Source: a virus
DNA: 64,000 nt
Direction: 5' to 3' (one strand)
IMG/VR virus record: IMGVR_UViG_3300045988_140174
Coordinates: 34,574 to 98,573 of that record
In this document: in pieces, positions 1 to 62,974 of the stretch
Numbering within the stretch: position 1 is the stretch's first letter
Layout of the letters: every line of letters starts with the position of its first letter
The notes under the pieces: model-generated
Database searches by the model: none
What the model was told of the DNA's origin: nothing
What the model saw: the letters and a program-made list of their open reading frames with translations, nothing else
Made by a program: the position numbers and the translations under genes

Positions 1-980
1 TCTTTATCTGTTTCTTCTACCCACCCAGAAGTTTTTAATTTTGTATATAAACGATGTATTAAAGCTGGTTTATCCTTTAATATAATATCATTTTTTAAAG
101 CTATAATTAAATTTGTTAATTCTGTTGTTTTTAATTTTCCGCCAATTCGTCTTCTTTGCTTAGAAGAATTCTTTAAAATCTAACCAGTCTTTAACTAAAT
201 ATTAAATAATTGTCCCTAATATTTTATAATAATATCACCACCAGTAATCCATGATATATGATTTAATGAATCAGCTAATAGTTTAAAAATATTATCTTTT
301 TCTTCATTCCATACTGACTAAGCAAATAAATTCTATTGTTCTGCTGGTATACTTCCTGCTAAAATCTATACATGTAAATGGGCCATATGATTCATAAAAG
401 CATCAGCTGCATTGCCTTGCCACACAGGATTGTTACCATAAATAATATTTTTATAAGTCCAATTGTGGGTATTCCATCTAGCTTCAGAAGCATTATGTTT
501 TATATCATGATATTTACTTTTAAAAATATCTCGAATTAATTCAATATCTGAAATGGTTTTTGTGGAAATATCAGTTATAAATTCTGATAAATGTTCATTA
601 ATTTGTTCTTGTATTGATTCTTGATAAGTTACTTTCATTAAATTTGAAATATGAGTTAATTTTCCTCTATCATTTAAAATATCATATTCTTTAGTAGCGT
701 GTTTAAATTGGTAATCTTTATTTTCACTATTAATATTTTCAATAAACAATAAAGATACAGCATAATCTTTATTCTATAAAATATTGCGCTATAAACTTTC
801 CCATTCTTTATAAGCCTCTTTTATCTACCCTCTTTTAATAAATTTCAATATAGAATTAAGTCTTAAATTTAAATTATGTAACAATCTTTCATCTAAAATT
901 GGGTCTATAAAATCTTTAAATTCCGTTTCAGATAAAATATCATTATTTGCTAAAATACCTTCTTTTAAAACTAAAGCCAT
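1..980 (-). CDS. hypothetical virion/late protein, 3' end outside window; contains many in-frame TAG
   Basis: RBS (aggagag) + ATG near 980 on minus strand; reading frame runs through track ORF 366..749 and to position 1 only if TAG is sense. Confidence 0.45.
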
Positions 981-7358: not shown

Positions 7359-8294
7359 TTACGCAATACGTAGAATTTTAGCGCCACGTTGTCCATCAGG
7401 CATAGTATATACCTTAACAACCTGCCACTTCATATCCTGACTCTCATCTTTTACAAGAATTCCGTCAGCAGCTGCTGGAGCTAAAATATCACCAACAGAA
7501 ACACTATCTTCATTAATCATATTAGTAGTATAATGATCGCCAACATTAGTCTTGAAGACACGAGGAACCATTGCAGTACCTGGAGTCATGCGCTTCTCAT
7601 GATAAACACCAAGCTTCTTATATGGATCATTAGTCCAAGTCAGCTCTTCGTAAATGTCAGCGACATCAGTTAGAACCTTATCATAAGCATACTTTACAGG
7701 CACAGGAGTCTTAGTCTGATTGGTCTTAGGATCAATCTCATACTCTACACCATTATAAGTAAACTTATTGTCCTTAACATCATAAACTTCGCCAGCGATG
7801 GTAACAGTCTTTAGACCCTGGTCTAAAGCAACAGTGTGCTCAAGCACCTTGTGATCAGCACCAGTTTCATCAACACCATTCCAGAAACGTCCACCATATT
7901 CAACCTCGGTATGCTCCCAATCATATGGAGAATAAATACGAGCCTGATAGTCGTCCTTTAGCATAGCAAATTCGCAATCCCACTGCTTAGTTCCATCAGG
8001 ATGATCGCGATATAACTTAATCTCATTATAAACTAGCATCCACTCGCCCTTGCCAGTAAAATTCACTTCACCAATACCATTGGCATTAGCAGCGTAATCA
8101 TACTTGACAAACTGGCCGTTTTCAAGAATATTAATATTCTTGTTAGCAGGCAACTGAGCATAAATTTGAGCGGTTCTTTGTGCAGACAGGTGATTTGGCT
8201 CAACCTGACCATAACCAAACTCAACATACTTAGCCTGTGACTTAGGTGGATTTTTACCAACGCCTAAACGAGAATTTAAAAAATCCTTAAACAT
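7359..8294 (-). CDS. hypothetical head-module protein, 311 aa
   Basis: complete ORF between scaffold-like gene and capsid candidate. Confidence 0.65.
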   Translation of the reverse strand: MFKDFLNSRLGVGKNPPKSQAKYVEFGYGQVEPNHLSAQRTAQIYAQLPANKNINILENGQFVKYDYAANANGIGEVNFTGKGEWMLVYNEIKLYRDHPDGTKQWDCEFAMLKDDYQARIYSPYDWEHTEVEYGGRFWNGVDETGADHKVLEHTVALDQGLKTVTIAGEVYDVKDNKFTYNGVEYEIDPKTNQTKTPVPVKYAYDKVLTDVADIYEELTWTNDPYKKLGVYHEKRMTPGTAMVPRVFKTNVGDHYTTNMINEDSVSVGDILAPAAADGILVKDESQDMKWQVVKVYTMPDGQRGAKILRIA

Positions 8295-8312: not shown

Positions 8313-9902
8313 TTAGTTTTTATTGGCTGATTCTAGAACAGCCTTGACCCAAGCTGGCATTCCAGCATCTCTGTCATCATCTAAATTGCTTAAATTATAG
8401 GTAGTTGGGCCTTTATCATTATTATCATCATCAAGGTTAAAATTAACCTTGTTGCGAACACAAATAACAGAAAGTTTTGCTTCAATATCATCAACAGAAT
8501 ACTTATCAATGTTATCAATAACATCTTTCTTATCATCATCAGACAGCATATAGAATGATTGAATCATAGCTTCTTTATCCTTGCGTTCAATACTATTTTT
8601 AAACTCAGTTAAAGAAGTATTAGTTTCACTTAGAGTTTTATTTTCAGCCTCTAATAAACTAAATTTATTTTGTAATTCTTCATATTCTGCCTTTAAGCTA
8701 ACATATTCTTCAATTTCATCCAAGGAATACTTTTTCTTTTTCTTTTTATCCTCATCATCTTCTGAAGGATCGTCATCTTCATTTTCTGACTTTTGACCAT
8801 TATTTTTAGAAGAACCATCATCTTTTTTGTTCTCAGGGTCGCCAGAATTATTGCCCTTATCATCGTTTGCCTTTTTATTTTCTTCTTCTTCTTGCTTTTT
8901 CTTAAATTCGGCTTCATAAGCTTCAACCGCATCTAAAGCAAACTGAGGCTCTGCTACTGGAGTATAAGATTTAGTTACTTCAATTAAACCTTCACCAGGA
9001 ACAAGACCATCAGAATCACTCAAAGAAAAGTTTAAACGATAATATTTCATATCTCCGCGGTCTTGAAGAATAGCAAATTTCTGACTATTATCTTCAAAAA
9101 CGCCATCAATACGATATTTAGAGCAATAATTGTTAGAGCCATCAGGGAAAGCCTTATTTACATATTCCCATAAAGCACTCCATAGAGAATCTCCGATTTC
9201 TACGGCATATCTATTAAACACTTTTGCTCCTCCTTCTTTTAATAATTCTTTTAGTTCATTCATCATTGAGTATAGTTCATTTTTAAAACTATCATCAAAT
9301 GAAAAAGAAAACTTTGTAATAGAGGAGCCTTCGAAGCAAGGTTCACACTCTTCTCCTAAAATACAAAGTTTAGAAATAATTGCTTCATTAATAATGAAAA
9401 ACTACGGCTTTCCATTATTATCTTTCGTCCAAGTTCCATCTAAAGTACCTTCATCGAGCTCCATAGAATGATTATTACCTTGCTCGATGATGCGCTTACA
9501 TTCTGGATATTGGCCGGTCCATAAATATCCTTCAGTCATAAGATATTCATGTTCATTAACGCCATCATCTAAAAATTTCTAAAACCAAACCTTGGCACCT
9601 AAATCTACAAAACCATAAGGTTTAGTAGTGTCTTTCATTTCAAACTTTCCGTTTGAAATATCAATAATTCTATTGTGTTCCTCAAAATCTCCATTAGATT
9701 CATTATAAAAACCAACAATAGGACTGCCAGGGAGACTATTAGCCATCTCCCTCGCAGTTTCTTTAGAAATAATGCTTCGATTGCGATTTGGCTCATCCCC
9801 AACGTAGCAAACTTTAATTTGGCATTTAGAAATCAAAGGATTAATAGGAGTTACATTAATAAATTCACAAGGCGTTTCAAGTTTAATACTTTGATGCTTC
9901 AT
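8313..9902 (-). CDS. scaffold-like protein with acidic K/E/D-rich coiled-coil C-terminus, about 529 aa, 2 in-frame TAG
   Basis: track ORFs 9579..9902 and 8313..9266 are in the same frame and joined by TAG read-through; C-terminal low-complexity KKKQEEEENKK.../DDDPSEDDEDKKKKKK. Confidence 0.5.
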
Positions 9903-11954: not shown

Positions 11955-13688
11955 TCAATTCAAGAAACACCAATCTTTAGCATTAAACTTTTTACGTTTC
12001 TTCTTTTTATCTTCTTCTAATTTTAAATAATATAGTCCATATTCAAAAGCAGAAAATTTATCTTTTCGGATACTTTTATTTGCTTGCTTCAGGATAATAT
12101 TTACTCCTTCAGTTTCTTCACGTAAATTCATCATTTCTTCTTTTAATATGGAAGTTAATGTAAATGGTTTTAATTCTTCTGCCCTCTATTCTGGAGTCAT
12201 AGTTTGACCTTTCTTTTTAGCAAGAAGTTTATTTTTTGCTACGCGCTCATCAATTAAAAATTTCACTTTTCCAGAAGCAAGTTGTGATTTAGCAATCGCG
12301 TGGGCCTCTGTGTTGAGTGGCGCATTAGCTTTTATAATATACATAGCATCTAATACTGTATTAGATGTTTTATATTTTTTATAAAATAAATCATCGTCAT
12401 TAACAACACCAAAATCAGGGAAAATTTCATTGGTTTCAGGGTCAATCTACGTCTTAACCATATAATCAATTAAACCAATTCCTAAACCATTACCATCAAT
12501 TACAATTCTATCAGCATTATATTTATAATATAATTTTTTTAATTTAATAGTTTGGTCTTCAAAATGTTCATCAGATAATGTATATATATTTACTAAACTT
12601 TTAATTGAACCACCTTGTGATTGTGGAGTTACTTTAAATACACAAATAACTGAATCGCATCCTTTACGACCAACATCGACAGCAAGTACATAAGATGCTA
12701 ATTTTGAATTACGCCCGGATGCTTCATATTCAGGCTAATTTAATATTCTATTTCTATCAAATATTTCAGCATTAAAAAATGCATCTTCTACTGTGCCAGA
12801 CCATTTACTTTCATACTCTCGGTCAAATGAACTTTCATTGAACGTTCCGTCCATTTTTAAGTCTTTAATAAAATTCGCATCTAACAATTTCATTAAAACA
12901 GGAATACGATAAGTACCACCCATAATAATAGATTGCTAAGGTTTAACAATCTCCCAAACTAATAATTGGATTAATTTATCATAGGGGAAAGTATTTTTAT
13001 ATCCAGCAGTAGTAATATAAATTTGAGATTTATTAAGAGTTTCATCAGGTTGAGTAGTACCATCCATACACATACGAGAAATATTCATTGTAGGAATAAT
13101 AACTTGTGATAAAATATCGCCATCAACGCCAACACACTCTTCAATTAAACCACCATGGCGACGTTTACCACGAGAAGACTCTCTCGCGGCAATATTATCA
13201 AAATATGAACCATTTTTAAATACATATTTAACATAATCCTTACCTTCAAGTGTCTAACCACGGCGCCAATCTATTTCTTTCTAAAATGCAGGAATAAGAG
13301 TACAAATTTCTTGAACTTTTTCTTTTACAATTCCAGCCGCTTGTTCTTTACCACCAGAAGTAATAAATAATTTACATCTGGGGTATAAAATCGCACGACA
13401 CATTAAGACCATCATTGACAAAAAAGATTTTGAATAAGCACGAGGGAATACAGCATAAATATATTTATGACGCATCGCAGCGCGCAAAAAGATTCTCTAA
13501 TAAAAATAGAGTTTAAAATGTTGAGGGCCGCCATCAGGTCCTGCCATAAAGTCGATAAACATATCTGGATATTCTCTCCAAAAGGCTATGTACTGTCTTG
13601 CTTCTGGTATAATCGCACGAAGACGGTCCTCTGAAATTCCAATCTTTTTACGCTTCTAAGATAAATCAAGTAAATCCTATAAAGCCAT
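11955..13688 (-). CDS. terL: terminase large subunit, 577 aa, about 10 in-frame TAG
   Basis: N-terminal ATPase region (CKLFITSGGKEQAAGIV) and RNaseH-like nuclease region (LAVDVGRKGCDSVICVFKV...VIDGNGLGIGLIDYM); track ORFs 13281..13487 and 12735..12923 share the frame; ends TGA. Confidence 0.85.
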
Positions 13689-33612: not shown

Positions 33613-33652
33613 AAAAAAAAATGGAGTGGCGATAAACCACTCCATTTTTTTA
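33613..33652. terminator. bidirectional terminator
   Basis: A8-ATGGAGTGG-CGATAAA-CCACTCCAT-T7. Confidence 0.7.
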
Positions 33653-34030
33653 TTCTTTATACATCAAATCACTTAAAATGTCATTATACGCTGATTCCAG
33701 GAGAGAATCAACAAGCGTCATATCAACATCAAGGTTAATCTCCGGCTTCACATCATTCTCCATAACCGGTCCAGAAGAAGAGATATCAGAAACCGGGCGT
33801 TCTAGCTTTTTCCAAGGTGATTCCCATTTACGATTCATATTACCATCTTCATCGACAGTCGCAATCCAATAGCCATCAACAATAAGGGCATTATTATAAT
33901 CATATAGAATATATACATTATCGCCCAAATCATCATACTTAGAGCGCACAATTACACCTCTGCCTTTATAATTACCAACTCTCTTACCATATTTATTTTT
34001 TAATACATCATAACTGAATTCATTTTTCAT
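33650..34030 (-). CDS. hypothetical protein, 126 aa
   Basis: complete ORF followed by the terminator. Confidence 0.65.
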   Translation of the reverse strand: MKNEFSYDVLKNKYGKRVGNYKGRGVIVRSKYDDLGDNVYILYDYNNALIVDGYWIATVDEDGNMNRKWESPWKKLERPVSDISSSGPVMENDVKPEINLDVDMTLVDSLLESAYNDILSDLMYKE

Positions 34031-34172
34031 TTTTTCATTTCACTTTCTAAAACGTTCCTTGATGTTTTGAGATAGTGCCCTAATTTTTCATTTCATATCC
34101 CTAATTGGGACTCCTACCCCTATTTCATTTTCTAAATATATTATATAATAATTTTATATATAAATCAACTTA

Positions 34173-34634
34173 CTTAATATAAAGTTGGTCAAATAACTTA
34201 CTTAATGCGTCTCCTGCGTCTTCTGCGCTACACCCCATAGCATTTACTTGTTTACTCAAATCCAATAGAGAATCAAATATAGAGACATAACTATTACTAT
34301 TATCGTAAATATTATTAGGCTAAGCATAGTCTGTTGTATCACTAATATTTACGTAATCATCATTCTGATGATATCCAGTAGAACGAAAATCTACATTTAA
34401 CTTTTGATTGCCCTTTCCGCCATAAACATCATTATCAAATGCAATCTTTACAGGTTTATAATTACTAGGCAATACAAAATAGATTGTATCATCTTTTAAA
34501 TATGTTTCTACTTTAATTGCCTCTTCGGGTACTTCTTCTTTACAACATCTTTTAAAACGTGCTGTATGTCTATTATTTACTTTCACAGGAATATTACTAC
34601 TATATTCACCATTTAATCCACTATGATAACCCAT
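34173..34634 (-). CDS. hypothetical protein, about 153 aa, 1 in-frame TAG
   Basis: track ORF 34320..34634 continued through TAG to TAA. Confidence 0.5.
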
Positions 34635-34655
34635 TATTATTTCTCCTTTTATTTT

Positions 34656-34829
34656 TTATTTACCCCAATTGATATCTACATCAATTTTACCACTATCTAT
34701 ATCTTTTATTACCTATTTATAGTTTTTCTAATTAAACTCAAATAATGTTCCATCTTTTAATTTAATTACATAAACTATTTTATCGTTTACTATCTTTACA
34801 CCATAATTTAACTATTCACTAATTTTCAT
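34656..34829 (-). CDS. small protein, 57 aa, 3 in-frame TAG
   Basis: RBS AAGGTGG + ATG; ends TAA. Confidence 0.35.
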
Positions 34830-34859
34830 TATTGCCACCTTTCAAGCGCCACAACGTGC

Positions 34860-35538
34860 GGTTGTATTTATACAACCACACCATTATTTATATTTATATT
34901 TATATTTATATTTATATTGCGGTTGTAATGGTTGTAATGGTTGTATTTAAATGTTTTTGGTTGTAAATTTTAATTCAAAATGGTTGTAATGGTTGTATTT
35001 GGATAAAAATGGTTGTTAAATTGGTTGTAAAAATCATAGATTTTTATTTAGTTTTAACAACCATTTTACAACCTCTTTACAACCATTTTACAACCAAATT
35101 GTGTGAAACAACCATTTTTGGTTGTGAAACAACCATTTTAGTTGTATTTATATAATTTTGGTTGTAATACAACCATTTTCATAAGGATACAACCATTTTC
35201 ATTCAAAATAGTTGTACTACAACCAATTTAGTTGTATACAACCATTTTTATTACCTTACAACCATTTTCATAAGAATACAACCAAAATGGTTGTTAAATT
35301 TTCATTTTTAGTTGTATACAACCATTTTTATTACCTTACAACCATTTTCATAAGAATACAACCAAAATGGTTGTTAAATTTTCATTTTTAGTTGTATACA
35401 ACCATTTTAAAAATCATACTTTATTTTTTTCTACTTTACAACCAAATTGGTTGTTAAATTTTCATTTTTGGTTGTATCCTATTGATTTGGTTGTAATACA
35501 ACCTTTTTGGTTGTATTTTCAGATAATTTTGGTTGTAA
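34860..35538. repeat. iteron array: more than 30 copies of GGTTGTA / TACAACC in both orientations (many as palindromic pairs) plus a (TATTTA)x5 tract at 34885..34918; putative replication origin
   Basis: dense 7-mer repeats with 10-11 bp phasing (e.g. GGTTGTAATGGTTGTAATGGTTGTA); palindromes ACAACCATTTTTGGTTGT and GGTTGTAATACAACC; AT-rich unwinding-element-like tract. Confidence 0.65.
35231..35408. repeat. 80-bp unit tandemly duplicated (2.2 copies) inside the iteron array
   Basis: GTTGTATACAACCATTTTTATTACCTTACAACCATTTTCATAAGAATACAACCAAAATGGTTGTTAAATTTTCATTTTTA repeated exactly at 35231 and 35311. Confidence 0.8.
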
Positions 35539-35970
35539 ATTTTTCGGCGCTGCCGATTCTTTTAACCACTCCGGATGCTTCTCTCGAATGATAAGCATAC
35601 GCTTTGCAATAGTCTGTTGAGAAACTCCAAACTTCGCGCCAATATCCTTCTATGTCATTCCAGAGTTTACCATTGTTGCAATTTCTTTAAGTTTTAAGGC
35701 TTCTACCTATCTCTCTTCCTTAGACTCTCTATGATTTGCCTTTTTATCAATAGTACTTTTCATTACATAGCCAATGTTCTATAACAATGCCTGAACCATA
35801 AAATCATCACTACTAATCTATCCAGTTAATGATAACTCAATGGCTGAAACCGCTAATTCTTTCGCCAATTCTTCTTCTCCATTATTATATAACATTTTAA
35901 TCTATTCAAACAATGATTGATATACAATTCCAGTTTTTTCCATAGGGCACTCTTTGAATTCTTTAATCAT
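35407..35970 (-). CDS. helix-turn-helix DNA-binding protein, about 187 aa with several in-frame TAG; C-terminus overlaps the iterons (possible origin-binding/initiator or regulator)
   Basis: RBS GGAGGGCGAGAAGA-ATG; HTH segment MTQKDIGAKFGVSQQTIAKRM; 3' end uncertain. Confidence 0.4.
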
Positions 35971-36162
35971 TCTTCTCGCCCTCCTTTAAGATACGATCAA
36001 ACGCATCTAATAATTCAGGCGTTGCCTCATAAACCCAACAACTAAAATGTGAGTTCTATGGATTCTTCATTTCAGTTAACGCACGAAAACCTCTTTGCTA
36101 TAACTAAATATGAATCTTTAATGAATAAATAATTTTAAAATTTGACACTTCAATATTGCTCC

Positions 36163-36312
36163 TTATCTTGACATTTTATTCATATACTCTTTCAATGCCT
36201 TGCGTATAACCTGAGACATTGTTAAATCCTGCGCTTGGGCAAAATTTTGTAATTCTAATTTCTCAGTTTGTGTCAGTCTAAGACTAATTATAACGACATC
36301 ATTATTTGCCAA
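36163..36312 (-). CDS. ribbon-helix-helix (CopG/Arc-like) protein, 49 aa (TTG start)
   Basis: VVIISLRLTQTEKLELQNFAQAQDLTMSQVIRKALKEY; RBS GGTGAGAGGTGATAAAAA-TTG. Confidence 0.45.
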   Translation of the reverse strand: MANNDVVIISLRLTQTEKLELQNFAQAQDLTMSQVIRKALKEYMNKMSR

Positions 36313-36458
36313 TTTTTATCACCTCTCACCATATAATAAAAATTTTTTGTATTACATTGTTCTACGTTGTCCTACGTAATATTACAAACCCATTCACTCA
36401 TTAAAAAAATCTATGCGTCTAAAATTTTAACACATTTTTTTAACAAAAATATTAAAAA

Positions 36459-36487
36459 TTGATTTTTAATAAAAATTTTTATATAAT
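36459..36487 (+). promoter_or_regulatory. promoter TTGATT-17-TATAAT (first copy of the conserved cassette promoter)
   Basis: same hexamers and spacing as the nine downstream copies. Confidence 0.55.
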
Positions 36488-36553
36488 ATATATATAAACA
36501 ATAAGAAATGAATTAACAACAGTTCAACTACAACTAATCAGGAGGTAATAAAT

Positions 36554-40811: not shown

Positions 40812-41741
40812 ATGGGATTTAAAGTTGATTTAACAGATTAGCGATTCGGACGATGGACAGTATTAGGCTTCGACTGTAATAAAAATAAAAAAAATTATTG
40901 GAAATGTAAATGTGATTGTGGAACTGAACGTAGTGTCGTAGGTAGTCATCTAGTTAACCAAAATTCAAAGTCTTGTGGGTGCTTATCAAGAGAAATAACC
41001 GCACAGCGTTCACGTAAAGATATTACAGGTTAGAAATTTGGGCGATTAATAGCTTTATATTCAACTAATACAAAAACTAATAATGGAAAATATATTTGGC
41101 ATTGTTAGTGTGATTGTGGTAATGTGGTAGATGTACCTATTGATGCCTTAACCACAGGAAATAAAAAATCTTGCGGGTGTTTATCTCGTGAAAAAGCTAG
41201 TGAAAGATTTGGTATTGATGAAACAGGAAATGTTTATGGCAAATCGACTGTAATTAAACGGGATACGTCTTAGGTTTATAATCATATTCACTGGTTATGT
41301 CAATGCTCTTGTGGCAATCCTGAATTAGAATCTATTAGTGGTGTTTCATTAAGGTTAGGAAAAAGAATAGCCTGTTCTAAATGTCGACCTCGTTCCAAGG
41401 GAGAAGAATAGATTCGTGATATTTTAATAGCGAATAATATTAATTTTATCCAAGAAAAATCATTTGATGATTGTCGTTTTCCAGATACTAATCGGCTAGC
41501 TAGATTTGATTTTTATGTCAATAATAGTTATATAATTGAATTTGATAGCAAATAGCATTCAGAAGAAACGTCTGGTAAATATAGTAATTGGCAATCATTG
41601 GATTACGTACAAGCTCACGATGAAATTAAAAATAATTATTGCTTAAAAAATAATATTCCAATGATTCGAATACCTTATCATAAATTAAACAATATTCAAT
41701 TAGAAGATTTATTAATAGAAACTTCAAAATATAAATTCTAA
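40812..41741 (+). CDS. homing-endonuclease-like protein, 309 aa: 3 Cys-rich zinc-finger repeats + C-terminal PD-(D/E)xK-like domain; 6 in-frame TAG
   Basis: repeats ..*RFGRW..CKCDCG....SCGCLSRE x3 with TAG at the same repeat position; C-terminus RFDFYVNNSYIIEFDSK*HSEE...IRIPY is paralogous to 11588..11944. Confidence 0.6.
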
Positions 41742-53803: not shown

Positions 53804-55543
53804 ATGAATCTGTATGACGCCCTGACTACGGAAGATATTGACCTGATTCGTGCTTACATTGAGGCATATGGCGGCAAGAATGATGAATATGATGCGACTG
53901 GTTGTTGTGTTCAGTCTATGCCGAATACGATGGCGCCGTGGGCAGAGGCTAAGGAGCGTCTCTATACGATGTTCGGTGAGCAGCTTATTCTGAGGAAGTC
54001 CTTTAACTTCTCTAAGGGCGTCGATGAGTTGGCCGATGAAATCAATGATGCTCGTTATCGCAGAGATGGCAATGGTATCTCTGAGATGGACAATTTGATT
54101 CGTGAAAATTTCTGGCCTCGGAATATTTATTCCGCTTTGGGTCTGGATGATGACCAGGCGGATAATATTTGTCGGCTGATTGATTCCTATATGCTGGCTA
54201 ATAACTCTTGGAGCCGCACTGAGTTCACTGTGAATGGCGTTCGTGTGAATACTGGTGCTAAGGCTGTGAAGATTCTGGGCAAGATTCTCGCCACTTTTGA
54301 GAACCCTGAGTGGAACGAAATCTTTGAGCAGTTCCGCCTGGAACATTCTCGTATTCTCAATCAGAAGAAGCTGACTGGCGAACTGTGCCTGTCTATTCAT
54401 CCTCTGGATTATATGACTATGAGTGATAACAACGAGGGTTGGGACAGTTGTATGAGCTGGCAGGCTTGCGGTGATTATCGTCAGGGCACCGTAGAGATGA
54501 TGAACTCTCCTTGTGTCGTGGTGGCATATCTGCGAAATCCCGGCTATGAGATGGACATTCCCGATGGTCATTGGAACAGCAAGAAGTGGCGTTGCCTGTT
54601 TGTTGTCGACCGCGATGTTATTGTTAATATCCGCGAGTATCCCTATTGTAATGATGAACTGGTAGGCGAGTGCCTGAATTGGTTGAAGAGCCTGGCCGAG
54701 AAGAACCTTCATTATCAGTATCGTGATACTACTTGTCGGTATCGCGCAGATTGCGAGAATAGTGTTCAGGTTGGCGAGAAGAAAATTCCTGTGAATTTTT
54801 CTACTGGTCATATGTATAGCGATTTCCGTTTTGAGCATCTGATGTATCTGAATGCCGCTCTGCCGGATAATATTAACATTTATTACTCTGGTGTGAGTGA
54901 GTGCCTGGGTTGCGGTAAGACTTCTAGCGGCTATGATGAAAGTCTCCTGAGTTCCAACGATTTGATTTGTCATAGCTGTAATGGCGATGGCGAATGCGAA
55001 GAGTGTGGTCGTTATTGCGATGCTGAGGAATTGTATGAGGTTGAGGGCCGTTTGATTTGTCAGAATTGCTATGATAACGAGACTGCTGAGTGTCCTGTTT
55101 GTCAGCGTGAGGTTGACCTCCACAATGAAAAGTGTGAAGATTGGCGCGACCAATTGCCTGACCCTGAACGCCATTTCATCCGTAGCGATAATACATTTGA
55201 AATCGCGTTCAATGGCTATATCACTCATCTTCACTTTGATACTCTGTGTGAGTGTTGTGCTAAGAAAATTCGTTCTGGCGAAATCAAGGATTATGGCCCC
55301 GTTGAGCAGTTTGTTGATAAGTGGAGCATTTCCCATACCTATCTGGATTTGGAGAAGATGACTGAGGACGCTGTTCAGGATGTTATTCCTTGGAACGGTA
55401 AGGGCTGGATGGAGCATCGCAGAGATAATCCTAACCGCAGTTGGGTAAGTCTCAAAACAGGATATTGCGATTTTGATAAGGGTTATTTCATTGATGAAGA
55501 CGGGAACGAAATCGAAAATCCTCGCAAAATCTTCTTCTCCTAA
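53804..55543 (+). CDS. large Cys-rich protein, 579 aa (paralog of 58165..59628); family unknown
   Basis: shared core LSIHPLDY...W.SC...Y..G......Y.......WNSKKWRCL...YPY; C-terminal zinc-ribbon cluster. Confidence 0.75.
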   Translation: MNLYDALTTEDIDLIRAYIEAYGGKNDEYDATGCCVQSMPNTMAPWAEAKERLYTMFGEQLILRKSFNFSKGVDELADEINDARYRRDGNGISEMDNLIRENFWPRNIYSALGLDDDQADNICRLIDSYMLANNSWSRTEFTVNGVRVNTGAKAVKILGKILATFENPEWNEIFEQFRLEHSRILNQKKLTGELCLSIHPLDYMTMSDNNEGWDSCMSWQACGDYRQGTVEMMNSPCVVVAYLRNPGYEMDIPDGHWNSKKWRCLFVVDRDVIVNIREYPYCNDELVGECLNWLKSLAEKNLHYQYRDTTCRYRADCENSVQVGEKKIPVNFSTGHMYSDFRFEHLMYLNAALPDNINIYYSGVSECLGCGKTSSGYDESLLSSNDLICHSCNGDGECEECGRYCDAEELYEVEGRLICQNCYDNETAECPVCQREVDLHNEKCEDWRDQLPDPERHFIRSDNTFEIAFNGYITHLHFDTLCECCAKKIRSGEIKDYGPVEQFVDKWSISHTYLDLEKMTEDAVQDVIPWNGKGWMEHRRDNPNRSWVSLKTGYCDFDKGYFIDEDGNEIENPRKIFFS

Positions 55544-57124: not shown

Positions 57125-58165
57125 ATGCGAGTGATGAAAGATTCTGAGTATCTAGCATTTAAGCAGTTAGCCAAGCTCACTCAAGATCAAATGATTAGGG
57201 CTATGCGTGCGGTGTTAGAGGCTCGTTATACCGATATTATCGCAACAAAGGAATATATTGTAGCCAAGGGAGATATTCCTATCGGATTGGTTGCCCATAT
57301 GGATACAGTGTTCCCGCTTCCTCCTACTGAAATTTATTATGATACTACACAAAATGTTGTGTGGAGTCCGCAGGGTCTTGGAGCTGATGACCGCGCCGGT
57401 ATATTTGCGATTCTTCAAATTCTGAAGACTACAAAATTGCGTCCGCATATTATTTTGACAACTGATGAAGAGAAGGGCGGATGGGGCGCATACGCCCTTG
57501 TTGAACAGCATCCAGATTTTCCGTTTGATGATTTGAAATATCTGATTCAGTTGGACCGCCAGGGCGCGAATGATTGTGTGTTTTATGATGGTATCAATGA
57601 AGATTTTATCCGTTATGTATCTTCTTTTGGTTTCGTAGAGCATATTGGTTCATTCAGCGATATTAGTATTCTGTGTCCATTCTGGGATGTGTGCGGTGTC
57701 AATCTTTCTGTCGGTTATAAAAATGAGCATAGTCTCATTGAAACATTAAATATTAGCCATTTGTTCGATACCATCCAAAAGGTGAAGAGAATGTTAATGG
57801 TGAAGGAAATTCCTGACTTTGAGTGGAAGGAAAAATACTATCCTTATTTCACTAATGGGTATCCTCTGGATGATGACATTGATGAGTATAGCGCGGCTTA
57901 TGGTTATAATTGGGTAAATGATAAACGCTCTGTTGATGCTTATACAGTAATTTGTCATAATTGTAAGAAGCCATTTTATAATTATGAAACATTCCCCACT
58001 AAGAAAATTGATGGTGGAACTATGTTCTTGTGCCCCGATTGTGTGGGCGACCATGCTAATTGGTGCGATTGTTGTGGCGAAGCATTTGAGCGTACACCGG
58101 AAAATGCCGGGGCTACTCTTTGCCCTGACTGTGCGAAAATTGAGAAGATTAAGGTTAAAGGTTAA
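57125..58165 (+). CDS. M20/M42-family metallopeptidase-like protein with C-terminal zinc-ribbon domain, 346 aa
   Basis: GLVAHMDTV, GADDRAG, TTDEEKGGWGA, GYKNEHS metal/catalytic motifs; C-terminal CHNC...CPDC...CDCC...CPDC. Confidence 0.65.
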   Translation: MRVMKDSEYLAFKQLAKLTQDQMIRAMRAVLEARYTDIIATKEYIVAKGDIPIGLVAHMDTVFPLPPTEIYYDTTQNVVWSPQGLGADDRAGIFAILQILKTTKLRPHIILTTDEEKGGWGAYALVEQHPDFPFDDLKYLIQLDRQGANDCVFYDGINEDFIRYVSSFGFVEHIGSFSDISILCPFWDVCGVNLSVGYKNEHSLIETLNISHLFDTIQKVKRMLMVKEIPDFEWKEKYYPYFTNGYPLDDDIDEYSAAYGYNWVNDKRSVDAYTVICHNCKKPFYNYETFPTKKIDGGTMFLCPDCVGDHANWCDCCGEAFERTPENAGATLCPDCAKIEKIKVKG

Positions 58166-59628
58166 TGAAGAGTTATAATTTAGATGAACTAAAACAGCAA
58201 GTCAAACACGTATTAGAGTATAGTCAGGGTATTTATGATGTGAGTGAGGACGCTCTTGATAATATGATGAGTGAATGGGAGCGTAATAAAGCACGATTCA
58301 TTAATGATTTTATGGGCGGCAAACTCATTGTGGAGTTGCCAGGCAAACGCTCCTTTCATTTGGGAGAAAAGGCAAAACTCAAGAAATACAATGATTTTTT
58401 GGATTATGTTGTTCTGCGAATGAATAATTATGAGTTATGCCGATTTATTGAAGCGCAGGGCGAAGAAGGATTTTATGAGAACACCGTAAAAACTGGTTGG
58501 GACCATACTAAGAGTGATACATTTATTTCGCCGGGATCTAAACTAATACGAGCATTTAAATATTTCATTGAAGATAAGGATTTGCTGGAAACTGTTCAGA
58601 ATGAGGCCAGTCGTATTATTCAAGGAGACTGTATCGAAGGCATTCTTTGTATATCAGTCCATCCTCTTGATTACCTCAGTTTAAGTGAAACTACATATAA
58701 CTGGCGTTCTTGCCATGCTCTTGATGGCGAATATCGCGCTGGTGATTTGAGTTATTTGATGGATGGTAGCACATTTATCTGTTATCTGAGAGGCGATGAT
58801 AAACAAAACCTCCCTTCATTTCCCGATGATTTGCTCTGGAATAGTAAGAAGTGGCGTTGTTTGGGCTTCTTGGCTGATGATGAAAATGGTATCATTATGG
58901 GCCGTCCTTATCCCTATGAGGCCGCAGATATTATTAATGAACTTCGTTGGGAAGTGTTTAATAGAGAATGGAATTTGGGCCTTGGTAGTTGGCGCGCAGA
59001 CGCCATTCGTTCGGTTCAAGACCGCTTAACTAACTGGGATGAAGATTTGAATCGTACTTATATCCCTTGGAATGGCCGTCTTGTAGAACTTGATAAAACT
59101 GTTCATGATTGTCCAAGTCCTACTCATTATAATGATATTCTTTTATCCAGTTGTTATTTGCCTATTTATGCTCGTGGTAAAGGATATTTTGGCAAAAATG
59201 ATTGGAAGAAGGTTCAGTATCATATTGGACACTCAGTAATGTGTATCCATTGTAATTCTGAGTATGTGTCTCCTGGTGATGGCACGATGATGTGCCATTC
59301 TTGTGAGATTAGATATGGCAATTCTGACAGTGATGATATTGTTTATTGTGAGAATTGCGGTTGTCGTTTATGGTATGAAGACGCAATTGTTGTTGGAGAC
59401 AATGGAAATTATCTTTGTGATGAATGCGCTAGTAGAATCACTAAAACTTGTAGAGATTGCGGTAATCCATATTACATTGATGATTTAACATACCATAAAG
59501 ATGATGAAGATGAAAACGGCGGATATTATTTGTGCGGATGGTGCGAGCAAGATAGACAGGACACGGAAGAAATCGCAGAAGATGAATCTTCTACTACTAC
59601 TATCAACTTTGATGAGTTTGATCTGTAG
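58165..59628 (+). CDS. large Cys-rich protein, 487 aa (paralog of 53804..55543)
   Basis: shared HPLDY/WNSKKWRCL/YPY core and zinc ribbons. Confidence 0.75.
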   Translation: MKSYNLDELKQQVKHVLEYSQGIYDVSEDALDNMMSEWERNKARFINDFMGGKLIVELPGKRSFHLGEKAKLKKYNDFLDYVVLRMNNYELCRFIEAQGEEGFYENTVKTGWDHTKSDTFISPGSKLIRAFKYFIEDKDLLETVQNEASRIIQGDCIEGILCISVHPLDYLSLSETTYNWRSCHALDGEYRAGDLSYLMDGSTFICYLRGDDKQNLPSFPDDLLWNSKKWRCLGFLADDENGIIMGRPYPYEAADIINELRWEVFNREWNLGLGSWRADAIRSVQDRLTNWDEDLNRTYIPWNGRLVELDKTVHDCPSPTHYNDILLSSCYLPIYARGKGYFGKNDWKKVQYHIGHSVMCIHCNSEYVSPGDGTMMCHSCEIRYGNSDSDDIVYCENCGCRLWYEDAIVVGDNGNYLCDECASRITKTCRDCGNPYYIDDLTYHKDDEDENGGYYLCGWCEQDRQDTEEIAEDESSTTTINFDEFDL

Positions 59629-59747
59629 TCATTAAATACAAGACCTATATATTATATACACGATGAAAATGGCGAATGGATACCTATTACGCGAGTGCGT
59701 CAAATACCTCCGCCAGAACGTGAATAATTATTTAAATATTTAAGGAG

Positions 59748-60830: not shown

Positions 60831-62018
60831 ATGTATTATAATTCTTATAATTAGAATTATTTTAATGAATTAAATAAAATATTCAATAAATTTGATACTA
60901 ATAATATTAATGATTATTATAATTTATTTAAATTAATATATGATATATATTTTAATGAAAATGTATTTATAATTGTTAATGATGATATAAAATATCAATT
61001 AGAATCAAATTTAAAATTACTTATTAAAAAAAATAATTGGTTTATAGATTTTGAACAAACTGAAAAAAATATATTAATTTCATTATTTATTATAATTACT
61101 TAGAAAATTAATTTTGGAAATTATTATCAAATTAATAATACATTAAAACAATAGATTGAATCATTATTATTAGATAAAAATTTAATTAATGAAAAAATGA
61201 TTCATGATAGTAAAAATGTTTTTCATTTAGTTGATAGTTTTCCTGAAAATGAAAGTATGATTAAATTTTTTAAGCAATATAATATTGATATTATGAATTA
61301 GGAATTTTTAACTATTGGTAATACGAAAATTCCTAATTTTTATTTAAAACAAAAAAATAAAATGATAGATCATTATTATGAATTTTGCCATTTATTATTT
61401 AAAATTTATAGTCCAATCTTATATTATGGTGTTTCATTTGAAGAAGGATATGAATATAAAATAACTAATAAAGATATTGTATTTGATTGTGGCGGAAATA
61501 TGGGACTATTCGCGCTATACTGTGCTTCAAAAGGCGCGCAAGTATATTGTTTTGAGCCTATGTCTTATATTAGAGATTTTTTATATGAGAGTCAAAAATT
61601 ATATCCTGATTTAATCCATATTATTCCTTGTGGAGTGTTTAATAGAAATTAGGAACAATATTTTTCTCAAACCTATAATCCAGGAGCTGGATCGAATTCA
61701 ATATTTCATGAATTAGAATATACATCTGATAGATTATATAAAGAAAAATGTAAGTTAATTACATTAGATTCATTTAGTTAGAATAATCATATTATTCCTA
61801 CATTTATTAAAGCAGATATTGAAGGGTCTGAAGCACAAATGCTTGAAGGCGCTTCACAAATTTTACAAACATATAAACCAACTATGAATATTTGTTTAAA
61901 TCATCGGACGGAAGACCAATATAATATTCCTACCCTTATTTATAATATCAATTCTAATTATTCATTTTATTATTTTATTGAAGGAGAAATACATTCTAAA
62001 TTTGTATTGTGTAAATAA
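60831..62018 (+). CDS. FkbM-family SAM-dependent methyltransferase with a 177-aa N/I/K/Y-rich N-terminal extension, 395 aa, 6 in-frame TAG
   Basis: DCGGNMGLFALY...FEP and IKADIEGSE motifs; single frame from ATG 60831 through track ORF 61362..61652 to TAA 62016. Confidence 0.55.
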
Positions 62019-62020
62019 AT

Positions 62021-62974
62021 ATGCCAAATATTATTTTAACAGAATATTGTAATCTTCAATGCCCTTACTGTTTTGCTAGTAAAATGATTGAAGAAAAAAC
62101 AGATGATACTAAAAATATTTCTCTTGAATAGTTAGATATGATTTTAAAATGGTTATTACCTTCAGCAACAAATTTAGATCGGATTGGATTAATTGGAGGA
62201 GAACCTACTTTACATCCTTAGTTTAGAGAGATATTAGGTAGAATAAATTCATTTAATGAATTTACAAATACTTCTTCAATAGTATTTACGAATGGAATTA
62301 ATTTAAGTGAATTTTTATCTGCTATTGGACCAAATATGTCAATTTTAATTAATGTAAATAAATTGACTGGTAAATCATTAAATAAACTTAATAGTGTATT
62401 AGATGAAATTAATTATTTAAGTTGGTTTAAAATTGATAAAGTTATTTTAGGATGTAATTTATATCAAAATGAAAATGATTATTCTTATTTTTGGAATGTA
62501 GTTGATAAATATCCAGATATTTTAAGAATAAGAATGTCTATTACTGCACCCAATAGCAAAGAATTAAGAGTAAATAAAAAATTGTATTATACTATTATGA
62601 AACCTATATTATTACAATTTTTAGAAGAAACTAAAAAACGTGATATAAAAATTTCATATGATTGTAATTAGATTCCGTTATGTTTATTAAACAATGAAGA
62701 ATAGAATTTAATAAATCAATTAGGGGAATTAAATAGTTTTTGTGAGCCCGTTATAGATATTACTCCAGATTTTAAAGCTACTTGCTGTTTTGGTGTTTAT
62801 GATAATCCCATTCAATGTAATGATTTTAATAATATCGAAGAATTAACTAGATATTTTAAAAATCAAATAGTAATAAAAACTATAAATAATAACACTTCCA
62901 TGTGCAAAGATTGTAAAAAATTACAACTTGCTCAATGTCAAGGAGGATGTTTATCATTTTCTAATGTTGGGTAA
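62021..62974 (+). CDS. radical SAM enzyme with C-terminal SPASM/twitch domain, 317 aa, 4 in-frame TAG
   Basis: CNLQCPYC (Cx3Cx2C), GGEPTLHP; C-terminal CCFGVY...C...CKDCKKLQLAQCQGGC. Confidence 0.7.

Follow-up and report, generated by a model that had tools for sequence, protein, structure and literature searches.

We analysed a 64,000-nucleotide stretch of viral DNA (IMG/VR record IMGVR_UViG_3300045988_140174, positions 34,574 to 98,573; hereafter the window, numbered from its first letter) and describe a three-part element at the end of a minus-strand gene for a helix-turn-helix (HTH) protein: an array of short repeats (iterons), a microsatellite with a period of 6 bp, and a hairpin made of two inverted iterons. 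As judged by sequence comparison, this three-part module is conserved in related phages and previously undescribed, and the core sequence of the iterons changes together with the recognition helix of the HTH protein. From the anatomy, the conservation and the co-variation, all of which are observed, we infer the biochemical steps and the function of the module as a replication origin, and we put the chance that array and module represent a new initiator/origin family at about even. An iteron-type origin with its binding protein is also what an earlier note on this DNA had suggested. The cis element that it pointed to is real, the layout is origin-like and recurs in every relative, and the same pairing of HTH and heptamer is found on the ATPase of an unrelated phage (see below); the protein itself, however, shows no detectable kinship to initiators.

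An iteron array, a hexamer tract and a hairpin at the end of the HTH gene

The heptamer GGTTGTA is present in 31 exact copies in the window, counting both strands, whereas shuffled sequences average 5.7 copies and have at most 12 (0 of 100 shuffles reach 31). This agrees with the more than 30 copies of GGTTGTA/TACAACC, in both orientations, that had been reported earlier. All but two of the exact copies in the 64 kb are located within 34860-35537, and the same interval holds 13 further heptamers that differ from GGTTGTA by one changed base. The extended consensus of the core is aaaaTGGTTGTAw. With 43 cores in 690 bp, the element has the clustered short repeats – at least three, beyond chance – that characterise iteron origins. 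While the repeats do occupy 34860-35540 as the earlier note had it, the array ends at about 35540, and the remaining part up to 35970 is ordinary coding sequence. The exact palindromes in the array are also as described, with GGTTGTAATACAACC at 35160-35174 and again at 35489-35503, and ACAACCATTTTTGGTTGT at 35108-35125.

The spacings of the cores, measured centre to centre, cluster at 7-13 and 18-23 bp, and a periodogram of the positions of the 40 cores that lie from 35580 down to the hexamer tract gives a best period of 10.0 bp (R=0.57, n=40). With such phasing the sites face the same side of the helix and are separated by A-tracts. The eight iterons closest to the microsatellite form a direct block (Table 1) in which the spacing inside triplets is 9 bp, and the centre of the last core lies ~6 nt from the hexamer tract. 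Farther from the tract the array contains three tandem 80-bp units. The exact duplication noted earlier consists of 35227-35306 and 35307-35386; the third unit, 35387-35466, is 78% identical, and its diverged part, 35407-35436, codes for the C-terminal tip and the stop codon of the HTH protein. Other assemblies of the same phage (L053, L054, L063, L068) have exactly one 80-bp unit fewer, a difference that reflects either true polymorphism in copy number or a collapse by the assembler. BRIT16-1 scaffold_17 ends within the 80-bp repeat, where several short contigs are interrupted too. We considered this contig end as a possible genome terminus and rejected it: a break within an exact 80-bp repeat that is shared by short contigs is the signature of an assembly break, and the second full-length contig of the phage carries the array internally.

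The (TATTTA)x5 tract of the earlier note is located at 34885-34918, directly beside the iterons, and is easily unwound: in the window, as well as in the related locus L073, no other 24-mer up to 600 bp away on each side is as unstable, and the tracts of most other loci are in about the least stable 7%. We propose that the tract acts as an unwinding or single-strand capture element. The palindrome that follows (Table 1) has a lone mismatch, which is a G-U/G-T wobble on the gene strand only. The fold of the gene strand is the more stable one in 11 of 14 loci, G-U/G-T pairs are distributed 9 versus 2 in its favour, and the loops across loci are frequently TTCG. This greater stability, together with the wobble bias, suggests that the palindrome probably functions when its gene strand is single-stranded and folds into a hairpin, whether in RNA or in displaced DNA. 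A search against Rfam returned no RNA family at gathering score, and noise alone at E<=1.

The module is conserved in gut phages of very different size

We read ~20 loci in total: the window, L073, L077, L081, L083, L084, L085, L086, L087/92, L088-90, L091, L093/94, L095, L096, L097, L098, L099, L100 and L101. At every one of them the HTH gene is followed by iterons, a 6-bp microsatellite and a G+C-clamped iteron hairpin, in this order, with the element either following the gene or overlapping it. The host genomes are gut phages of 19 to ~200 kb, recoded and standard-code alike. The genes of the module encode a ribbon-helix-helix (RHH) protein, a small DUF5659-like protein and a protein that combines DUF6291 with a LuxR-type HTH; we found no downstream partner gene that is common to small and large phages.

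The number of iteron copies per locus varies from 4 to ~45, and the core is lineage-specific: GGTTGTA in the window and L081, TTTGTA/TACAAA in most loci, TACAAAC together with TACCAAAA in L084, L091, L098 and L100, TACCAA in L086 and ATCTAAA in L087. The microsatellite is present at this position in all loci, with 3.5-10 units and the consensus AATGWT. The hexamers are mostly AATGAT, AATGTA or AATGTT, with AATATA in the window and L073, AATTCT in L081, ACTGAT in L086 and AnTGTG in L091. In all loci the hairpin is located 0-36 nt beyond the hexamers and its outer arms are the local iteron, inverted. The centre of the hairpin is G+C-rich in nearly all relatives, the window copy having G+C-rich outer ends instead. 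Furthermore, in the 11 loci analysed for orientation, the iterons on the hexamer side are always direct, have one orientation and stop ~6 nt short of the tract. The minimal arrays of L083, L085 and L101 are this direct block alone, with 4-6 repeats at 9-bp intervals. L073 has a further cluster, of TAGAATG/GATTAGA repeats, at 9290-9430, past the terminator of the module.

The HTH protein is the likely reader of the iterons

The recognition helix of the HTH protein follows the iteron core: GGTTGTA is found with SQQT[IV][AS]KR, TACAAA with [ST]QQxxSYR and ATCTAAA with NEKTVSYR. On the basis of this co-variation and of the adjacency of gene and repeats in ~20 loci, the HTH protein is the likely binder of the iterons. 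We rejected the RHH protein as the repeat binder, since its beta-strand does not track the iteron class: the strands of L081 (GGTTGTA) and L077 (TACAAAA) are nearly identical, and that of the window differs from L081. The RHH protein is probably the operon's own regulator and not a repeat binder.

An unrelated phage points in the same direction. The locus L027 (IMGVR_UViG_3300025164_000081) was retrieved solely by the palindrome GGTTGTAATACAACC, and the phage it belongs to is unrelated to that of the window. At 1230-2700 it encodes a 320-residue protein that consists of an AAA_25 ATPase (Pfam E=1.8e-22; primase/helicase-type by PHROG) and a C-terminal HTH. This HTH is 35% identical to that of the window protein over 37 residues and has the same helix start, FGVSQQAVSK. 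Directly 3' of the gene there is a G+C-clamped iteron hairpin, with six GGTTGTA in 230 bp. The L027 protein thus looks like a helicase-type initiator that uses the same DNA code. The 52 IMG/VR matches to GGTTGTAATACAACC are mostly single chance ones, with clusters in L027 and L041 only. In the latter (IMGVR_UViG_3300028800_000084, an unrelated high-G+C phage) repeats of TGTAATACA/TGTATTACA at 7700-8080 cover a gene's 3' end and the spacer behind it; this array may be an analogous element.

The array also encodes the tail of its putative binder

The earlier note had a minus-strand HTH gene ending inside the array. This holds if TAG is read as glutamine, as under the standard code the seven in-frame TAGs leave no open reading frame (ORF). 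The TAGs of the gene align with glutamines of homologues (FEqIK/FEQIK, TGqISSDD/TGQISSDD), and gene calls in public contigs of this phage include the 187-residue product as well. As judged by these alignments TAG is glutamine in this phage, in some blocks of the window only; stop-codon recoding in gut phages is documented in the literature.

The window protein carries a LuxR/GerE-type HTH. The preceding domain is assigned to DUF6291 (PF19808) through homologues, the window protein itself remaining under the reporting limit: P0008 scores 29.1 against a cut-off of 27.2, and 27 of the 69 long members match at E<=0.001. With the family-derived profile, P0001, which is 98% identical to the window protein, is recovered at E=2.5e-21. 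The family comprises 211 clusters at E<=0.001 among 1.84 billion representatives, all of them metagenomic. Homologues of 35-47% identity come from metagenomes, IMG/VR and three contigs of metagenome-assembled genomes; in IMG/VR a scan with the single protein found none and an alignment-based scan recovered them, and tblastn of the family found none in GenBank phages or PLSDB plasmids. A literature search returned no paper on DUF6291. The helical N-terminal domain is conserved across the family, and the long forms have a disordered tail. In some members the HTH is swapped for other HTH types or for a DUF2726 nuclease-like domain.

The first ~130 bp of the array, in the direction of the gene, are the 3' end of the HTH gene. 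Iteron-derived peptide repeats are present in the tails of the family, (N/D)x dipeptide runs, which are translated AATGWT hexamers, occur in 52 of the 106 long proteins, and the ORF of many small-phage members contains all three parts of the element. The motif [FYW]-x-[FYW]-COOH ends 55 of the 106 long proteins (background 0.0034 per position) and phenylalanine ends 67. The array codes for a tail with a conserved terminal motif, and the end of the gene within the array is therefore no accident: going by the translated repeats, the array doubles as the coding sequence of a tether with a terminal contact motif. A subset of the proteins (among P0001-P0274) has a small conserved domain, ISLxELNxMG...TGxxMK..YDF, ahead of the C-terminal [FYW]-x-[FYW].

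A proposed replication origin and its alternatives

If the module is an origin, initiation could proceed as follows. The LuxR-type HTH would read the 7-bp iterons, as adjacency and co-variation suggest. On the direct, phased iterons beside the hexamers the protein would oligomerise via its DUF6291 domain, with the A-tract-rich DNA bent or wrapped, and the adjoining 6-bp microsatellite would open. The hexamers stay similar across lineages that have different iterons, which suggests that their reader is conserved, be it the N-terminal domain or a host factor; the single strand would probably be held by such a conserved component. The gene-strand hairpin would rebuild one duplex iteron on a G+C clamp and could either delimit the bubble or provide a site for loading or priming, the F-x-F carboxy terminus of the disordered tail would recruit a component of the replisome, and the large distal array of mixed orientation may provide extra binding capacity that serves control or titration. 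Transcription of the operon, controlled by the RHH protein, would pass through the element. A more specific version of this scheme, which we regard as rather doubtful, is a two-headed initiator: a swappable HTH would sit on duplex iterons, DUF6291 or a host partner would capture AATGWT as single-stranded DNA, the repeat DNA would also encode a disordered tether whose F-x-F tip recruits the replisome, and in TAG-recoded phages the TAGs would tie firing to the code switch. By analogy, this would resemble the DnaA-box/DnaA-trio arrangement, with a protein that is not an AAA+ ATPase and with a 6-nt step.

Several further observations bear on replication. In L085 and L101, both small and temperate, the module comes after the integrase and the divergent early genes, and TerS/TerL begin ~1.2 kb beyond it in L083 and L085; siphophage replication modules are found at this place, and L101 shows no other candidate, which supports an origin. 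The N-terminal domain has weak Foldseek similarity to viral DUF6291 proteins and to one 'replisome organizer' (probability 0.8). The cumulative GC skew, which the earlier note had proposed as a check, has its minimum in the window at ~16 kb and not at the array. Block by block, the skew is -0.2 in the late block, ~0 in the left early block and +0.15 in the right block, a pattern that fits forks from ~35 kb better than from 16 kb and is weakly supportive. Of the two flanks of the module, the one whose transcription leads away from it has the higher coding-strand GC skew, and this is so in 7 of 7 loci.

A number of points weigh against an origin. The flanks are homologous across loci, and the seven skew results are therefore not seven independent tests; moreover, the skew climbs gradually, with no step at the module. 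In L086, L087 and L091, melting of the hexamer tract is not particularly easy. We found no polymerase, helicase or primase gene beside the module in the window or in the large relatives. Comparison with Rep_3/RepA winged-helix proteins, lambda O, replisome organizers, DnaD, DnaA, HUH Rep and helicase-type Rep revealed no kinship in sequence or fold to known initiators, the generic LuxR/sigma region 4 HTH alone being recognised, and the N-terminal domain has no informative match in the PDB. The number of sites, 43, is far above the need of known origins, and L085 also encodes an HTH_36 protein, a possible initiator. Finally, with seven in-frame TAGs the HTH protein would be made only once TAG is suppressed, and in recoded phages TAG suppression is regarded as a mark of late genes (bioRxiv 10.1101/2021.08.26.457843); such late-type expression is odd for a primary early origin.

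The late-type expression of a TAG-coded gene would be consistent with a pac- or cos-like packaging site, at which the HTH protein marks the repeats and binds terminase through F-x-F, the terminase being recruited to, or cutting at, the hexamers or the hairpin. The module of L083 and L085 lies only ~1.2 kb upstream of TerS/TerL, the HTH protein resembles TerS in joining a DNA-binding domain to a flexible tail that ends in a contact peptide, and several metagenomic contigs end 0.6-3 kb from the module. However, a distinct TerS-like gene is found beside TerL in both L083 and L085, and the terminase of the window is 22 kb off on the opposite strand. The sole contig that ends in the array stops within the 80-bp repeat, which is the mark of an assembly break, and the other full-length contig carries the array internally. 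In L027 the HTH is paired with a helicase-type ATPase and not with a terminase, and the window protein does not qualify as a small terminase, all its TerS-like HTH matches being sub-threshold. Taken together, a role in packaging appears quite unlikely to us. Transcriptional control would involve either operator or enhancer sites for a LuxR-type regulator, or a roadblock or attenuator that uses the hairpin, in each case switching downstream or late genes. The HTH fold is indeed typical of transcription factors and of sigma region 4, the iterons (TTTACA/TTGTAA) resemble -35 and the hexamers (GATAAT/TATAAA) -10 elements, and the single-strand hairpin of the gene strand is RNA-like, with UUCG-type loops. 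In the window, a ribosome binding site and a gene come straight after the element, and in small phages the module sits before late/packaging genes, where late activators such as RinA and Alt are located. Sigma-70-like sites, though, are unenriched in the region (19 against 22 expected), and up to 45 sites in both orientations with tandem -10 copies are unlike known activator-dependent promoters. A terminator directly follows the hairpin in L073, L077, L081 and L100, with a fresh promoter as well in L077, L081 and L100; a promoter inside the element would fire into a stop, and we therefore disfavour a late promoter at this position. The hexamer sequence also stays similar while the specificity of the protein shifts, and the mere two GGTTGTA outside the array in 64 kb mean that there is no regulon. 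All in all, we find a regulatory site unlikely.

A third role would be that of a centromere-like or tethering site, coated by the protein over its phased repeats as in ParR-parC, the omega heptads or TubR-tubC, with the tip engaging a motor or a scaffold. The HTH protein shares the design of ParR, in which a small DNA-binding protein bears a disordered tail that ends in a contact peptide. The short bidirectional repeats about one turn apart, their variation in copy number, the A-tract phasing, the RHH gene within the operon and weak HTH matches to the partition proteins ParB, KorB and RepB all fit such a site. Nonetheless, there is no NTPase of the ParA, ParM or TubZ type in the islet or beside the module at any locus, the small relatives have integrases and are therefore not plasmid prophages, the RHH protein does not co-vary with the repeats, and the conserved hexamers and hairpin have no counterpart in known centromeres. 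We consider a centromere very unlikely.

Comparison with known systems

The layout matches several known origins that lie within or directly behind their initiator gene. In phage lambda the origin is located inside gene O and consists of iterons, then an AT-rich region, then a palindrome. As in lambda and in SPP1-type systems, the element described here lies within the gene for its putative binder or at that gene's end, with iterons, a melted tract and a palindrome. Also as in lambda, the iterons and the DNA-binding part change together, the repeat DNA codes for a flexible linker, and the module of the small temperate relatives comes just after the lysogeny switch. There is, however, no homology: the LuxR-type HTH is in the middle of the protein as opposed to the N-terminal O-type domain, up to 45 cores of 7 bp spaced 9-10 bp apart take the place of the four 19-bp iterons of lambda, a conserved 6-bp microsatellite would melt, and no P-like, helicase or loader gene follows the module.

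In pAMbeta1 the origin comes directly after repE and is transcribed from the rep promoter. Iteron plasmids and pAMbeta1 share with our module the iterons, a DNA unwinding element (DUE) with repeated motifs and a small repressor gene before rep; the module differs in having no winged-helix Rep, in its iterons of 7 bp as compared to 17-22 bp, and in giving no sign of handcuffing or copy control. Binding of a Rep to repeated DUE motifs as single-stranded DNA has been reported for TrfA of RK2 and RepE of F (PMC4081077, PMC10602881). The origin of staphylococcal pathogenicity islands (SaPI) is just downstream of rep, with iterons of 5-6 nt around an AT-rich core, and the specificity of SaPI Rep resides in a small C-terminal DNA-binding domain (PMC9371898). 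Very short iterons in both orientations directly downstream of the initiator gene are a feature in common, and the L027 protein, an AAA_25 ATPase with an HTH and iterons downstream, is another likeness. The window protein, on the other hand, has no ATPase or helicase domain, the iterons are on one side of the hexamers, with the hairpin iterons alone on the other, and hexamers replace the plain AT core.

In the basal unwinding system of bacteria, with its DnaA-boxes and DnaA-trios, oriented duplex sites abut short tandem repeats, and the oligomer is thought to extend onto single-stranded DNA (PMC8287927). The fixed orientation and the ~6-nt gap in all loci analysed for orientation are alike in logic only. 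The unit is 6 nt, the protein is not AAA+, and the NAN-NAN pattern is fitted by the AATGAT variant alone. Within the window, DnaA boxes (TTATCCACA, <=1 mismatch) number 22 versus 21.7 expected, and the array has one, with one mismatch. As the boxes are unenriched and the repeat period is 6 and not 3, we rejected membership of this class.

Arrays of short repeats with cooperative coating are found in pSM19035 omega, R1 ParR-parC and TubR-tubC. Direct or inverted repeats of ~7-12 bp, a phasing that implies cooperative coating and an RHH gene in the operon are shared with these centromeres, whereas the module has no partner NTPase, a likely binder that is an HTH and not an RHH protein, and the additional hexamers and hairpin.

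Genomic context of the module

The window comes from the ~197.5-kb genome of a tailed phage, represented by human-gut metagenome contigs of 197,551 and 197,687 bp. Megablast with 12 kb and 16 kb of the window found no useful close relative among GenBank phages. The composition of the window is a mosaic of blocks that differ in strand, G+C content and TAG use, and recoding is block-specific: genes with TAG are in blocks of 21-32% G+C and TAG-free genes in blocks of 40-50% G+C. ARAGORN detected no tRNA or suppressor tRNA in the 64 kb. The array is located in a low-G+C, TAG-coded islet that is transcribed against both neighbouring blocks (Table 1).

Table 1. Coordinates of the array, its gene neighbourhood and the genome blocks in the window.
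Feature	Position	Strand	Remarks
Iteron array	34851-35540	both orientations	43 GTTGT/ACAAC cores (34851-35536), 29 exact GGTTGTA; 76% A+T
Proximal direct block	34921-35030	+	8 iterons, one orientation; TACAACC on the HTH-gene strand
Tandem 80-bp units (three)	35227-35466		8 helical turns each
6-bp-period microsatellite	34885-34918		(TATTTA)5.6, (AATATA)n on the gene strand; 100% A+T
Palindrome of two inverted iterons	34856-34881		GTGCGGTTGTA-TTTA-TACAACCACAC; G+C-rich outer ends, 11-bp stem
HTH gene	35407-35970	minus	187 residues; 7 in-frame TAG read as Gln
DUF6291-type helical N-terminal domain of the HTH protein	residues 1 to ~90		
LuxR/GerE-type (sigma-70 region 4-like) HTH	residues 94-131, nt 35691-35578		
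Disordered tail of the HTH protein	residues ~140-187		array-encoded; C-terminal tip ...KIKYDF
DUF5659-like gene	35963-36148	minus	61 residues, GTG start, 3 in-frame TAG; end overlaps the HTH start codon
RHH (Arc/CopG-like) gene	36163-36312	minus	49 residues, no TAG; first in the operon
AT-rich divergent promoter region	36313-36553		likely operator region of the RHH-HTH operon
57-residue ORF	34656-34829	minus	3 TAG; ribosome binding site before it; begins straight after the hairpin
154-residue ORF	34170-34634	minus	1 TAG; homologue in L091
126-residue ORF	33650-34030	minus	last gene of the islet; promoter-like site 34168-34140; GAAATGAAA repeats upstream
Bidirectional terminator-like hairpin	33615-33651		15-bp stem, T-runs on both sides; closes the islet against the converging plus-strand block
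Islet holding the array	33650-36312 (2.7 kb)	minus	low G+C, TAG-coded; transcribed against both neighbouring blocks
Late block	1-16 kb	minus	sigma factor gene, large terminase, portal; ~30% G+C; many in-frame TAGs
Terminase	11955-13688		22 kb from the array, other strand
Small-gene blocks	17-33 kb, 36.5-60 kb	plus	40-50% G+C; essentially TAG-free
Low-G+C TAG-coded stretch	60-64 kb		21-25% G+C

The RHH gene, which the earlier note had placed after the array, runs from 36312 to 36163, outside the interval 34860-35970 to which that note referred, and is transcriptionally upstream of the HTH gene. An RHH gene is located upstream of the HTH gene in L077, L081, L083, L085, L087, L093, L095, L097 and L101 as well. 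The RHH protein matches Pfam DUF6290 with 28.5 bits (cut-off 27) and, more weakly, RHH_1 and RHH_9; its PHROG matches are CopG/Arc-like repressors. In the promoter region ahead of it, inverted TTGTA(A/T)TAC motifs, which have the iteron core TTGTA inside, flank two GTAGnACAA direct repeats at 36340-36385. These motifs could serve as an autoregulatory operator. For the plus-strand genes, a sigma-70-like site is present at 36459-36487. Homologues of the DUF5659-like protein, 55-63 residues long, are found at the same place in relatives; the copies of L101 and L102 belong to Pfam PF18903 (DUF5659), while the window copy has no Pfam match.

On the other side of the element, the 57-, 154- and 126-residue ORFs have no family matches. 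A homologue of the 57-residue ORF occupies the same position in L091, and a protein identical to the product of the 126-residue ORF is found on public contigs. A second repeat family, GAAATGAAA/AAATGAAAAA, is present at 34020-34130 in the window and at L088:6990-7090, L098:1590-1700 and L099:11380-11520. These repeats are located upstream of the homologue of the 126-residue ORF, and inside that gene in L099.

Three other parts of the window stand out. An HNH/intron-type endonuclease gene at 40812-41741 (plus strand) has six in-frame TAGs in an otherwise TAG-free block, and the C-terminal nuclease part of its product is like the domain that replaces the HTH in members P0012-P0014 of the HTH-protein family. 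Paralogous Cys-rich proteins with multiple CxxC (PHROG 18912) are encoded at 53804-55543 and 58165-59727 (plus strand), on either side of a peptidase-like gene. Methyltransferase and radical-SAM genes are found at 60831-62974 (plus strand) in the most AT-rich part of the window, which is TAG-coded and has 21-25% G+C.

Implications

For large uncultured recoded gut phages, a published survey could place origins by GC skew alone, and those of several clades not at all. The module offers a sequence-defined origin candidate in phages of 19 to ~200 kb, and a testable role for DUF6291 and DUF5659. Its specificity classes suit swap experiments, the second repeat – the hexamer – hints at strand capture, and the peptide tip could be used as a bait for the partner. 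Even if the function turned out to be packaging or segregation, the module would still be a well-delimited system of protein-DNA recognition, useful for the tracking and engineering of phages. If it is true that the initiator depends on TAG suppression, replication control in these phages would be linked to code switching.

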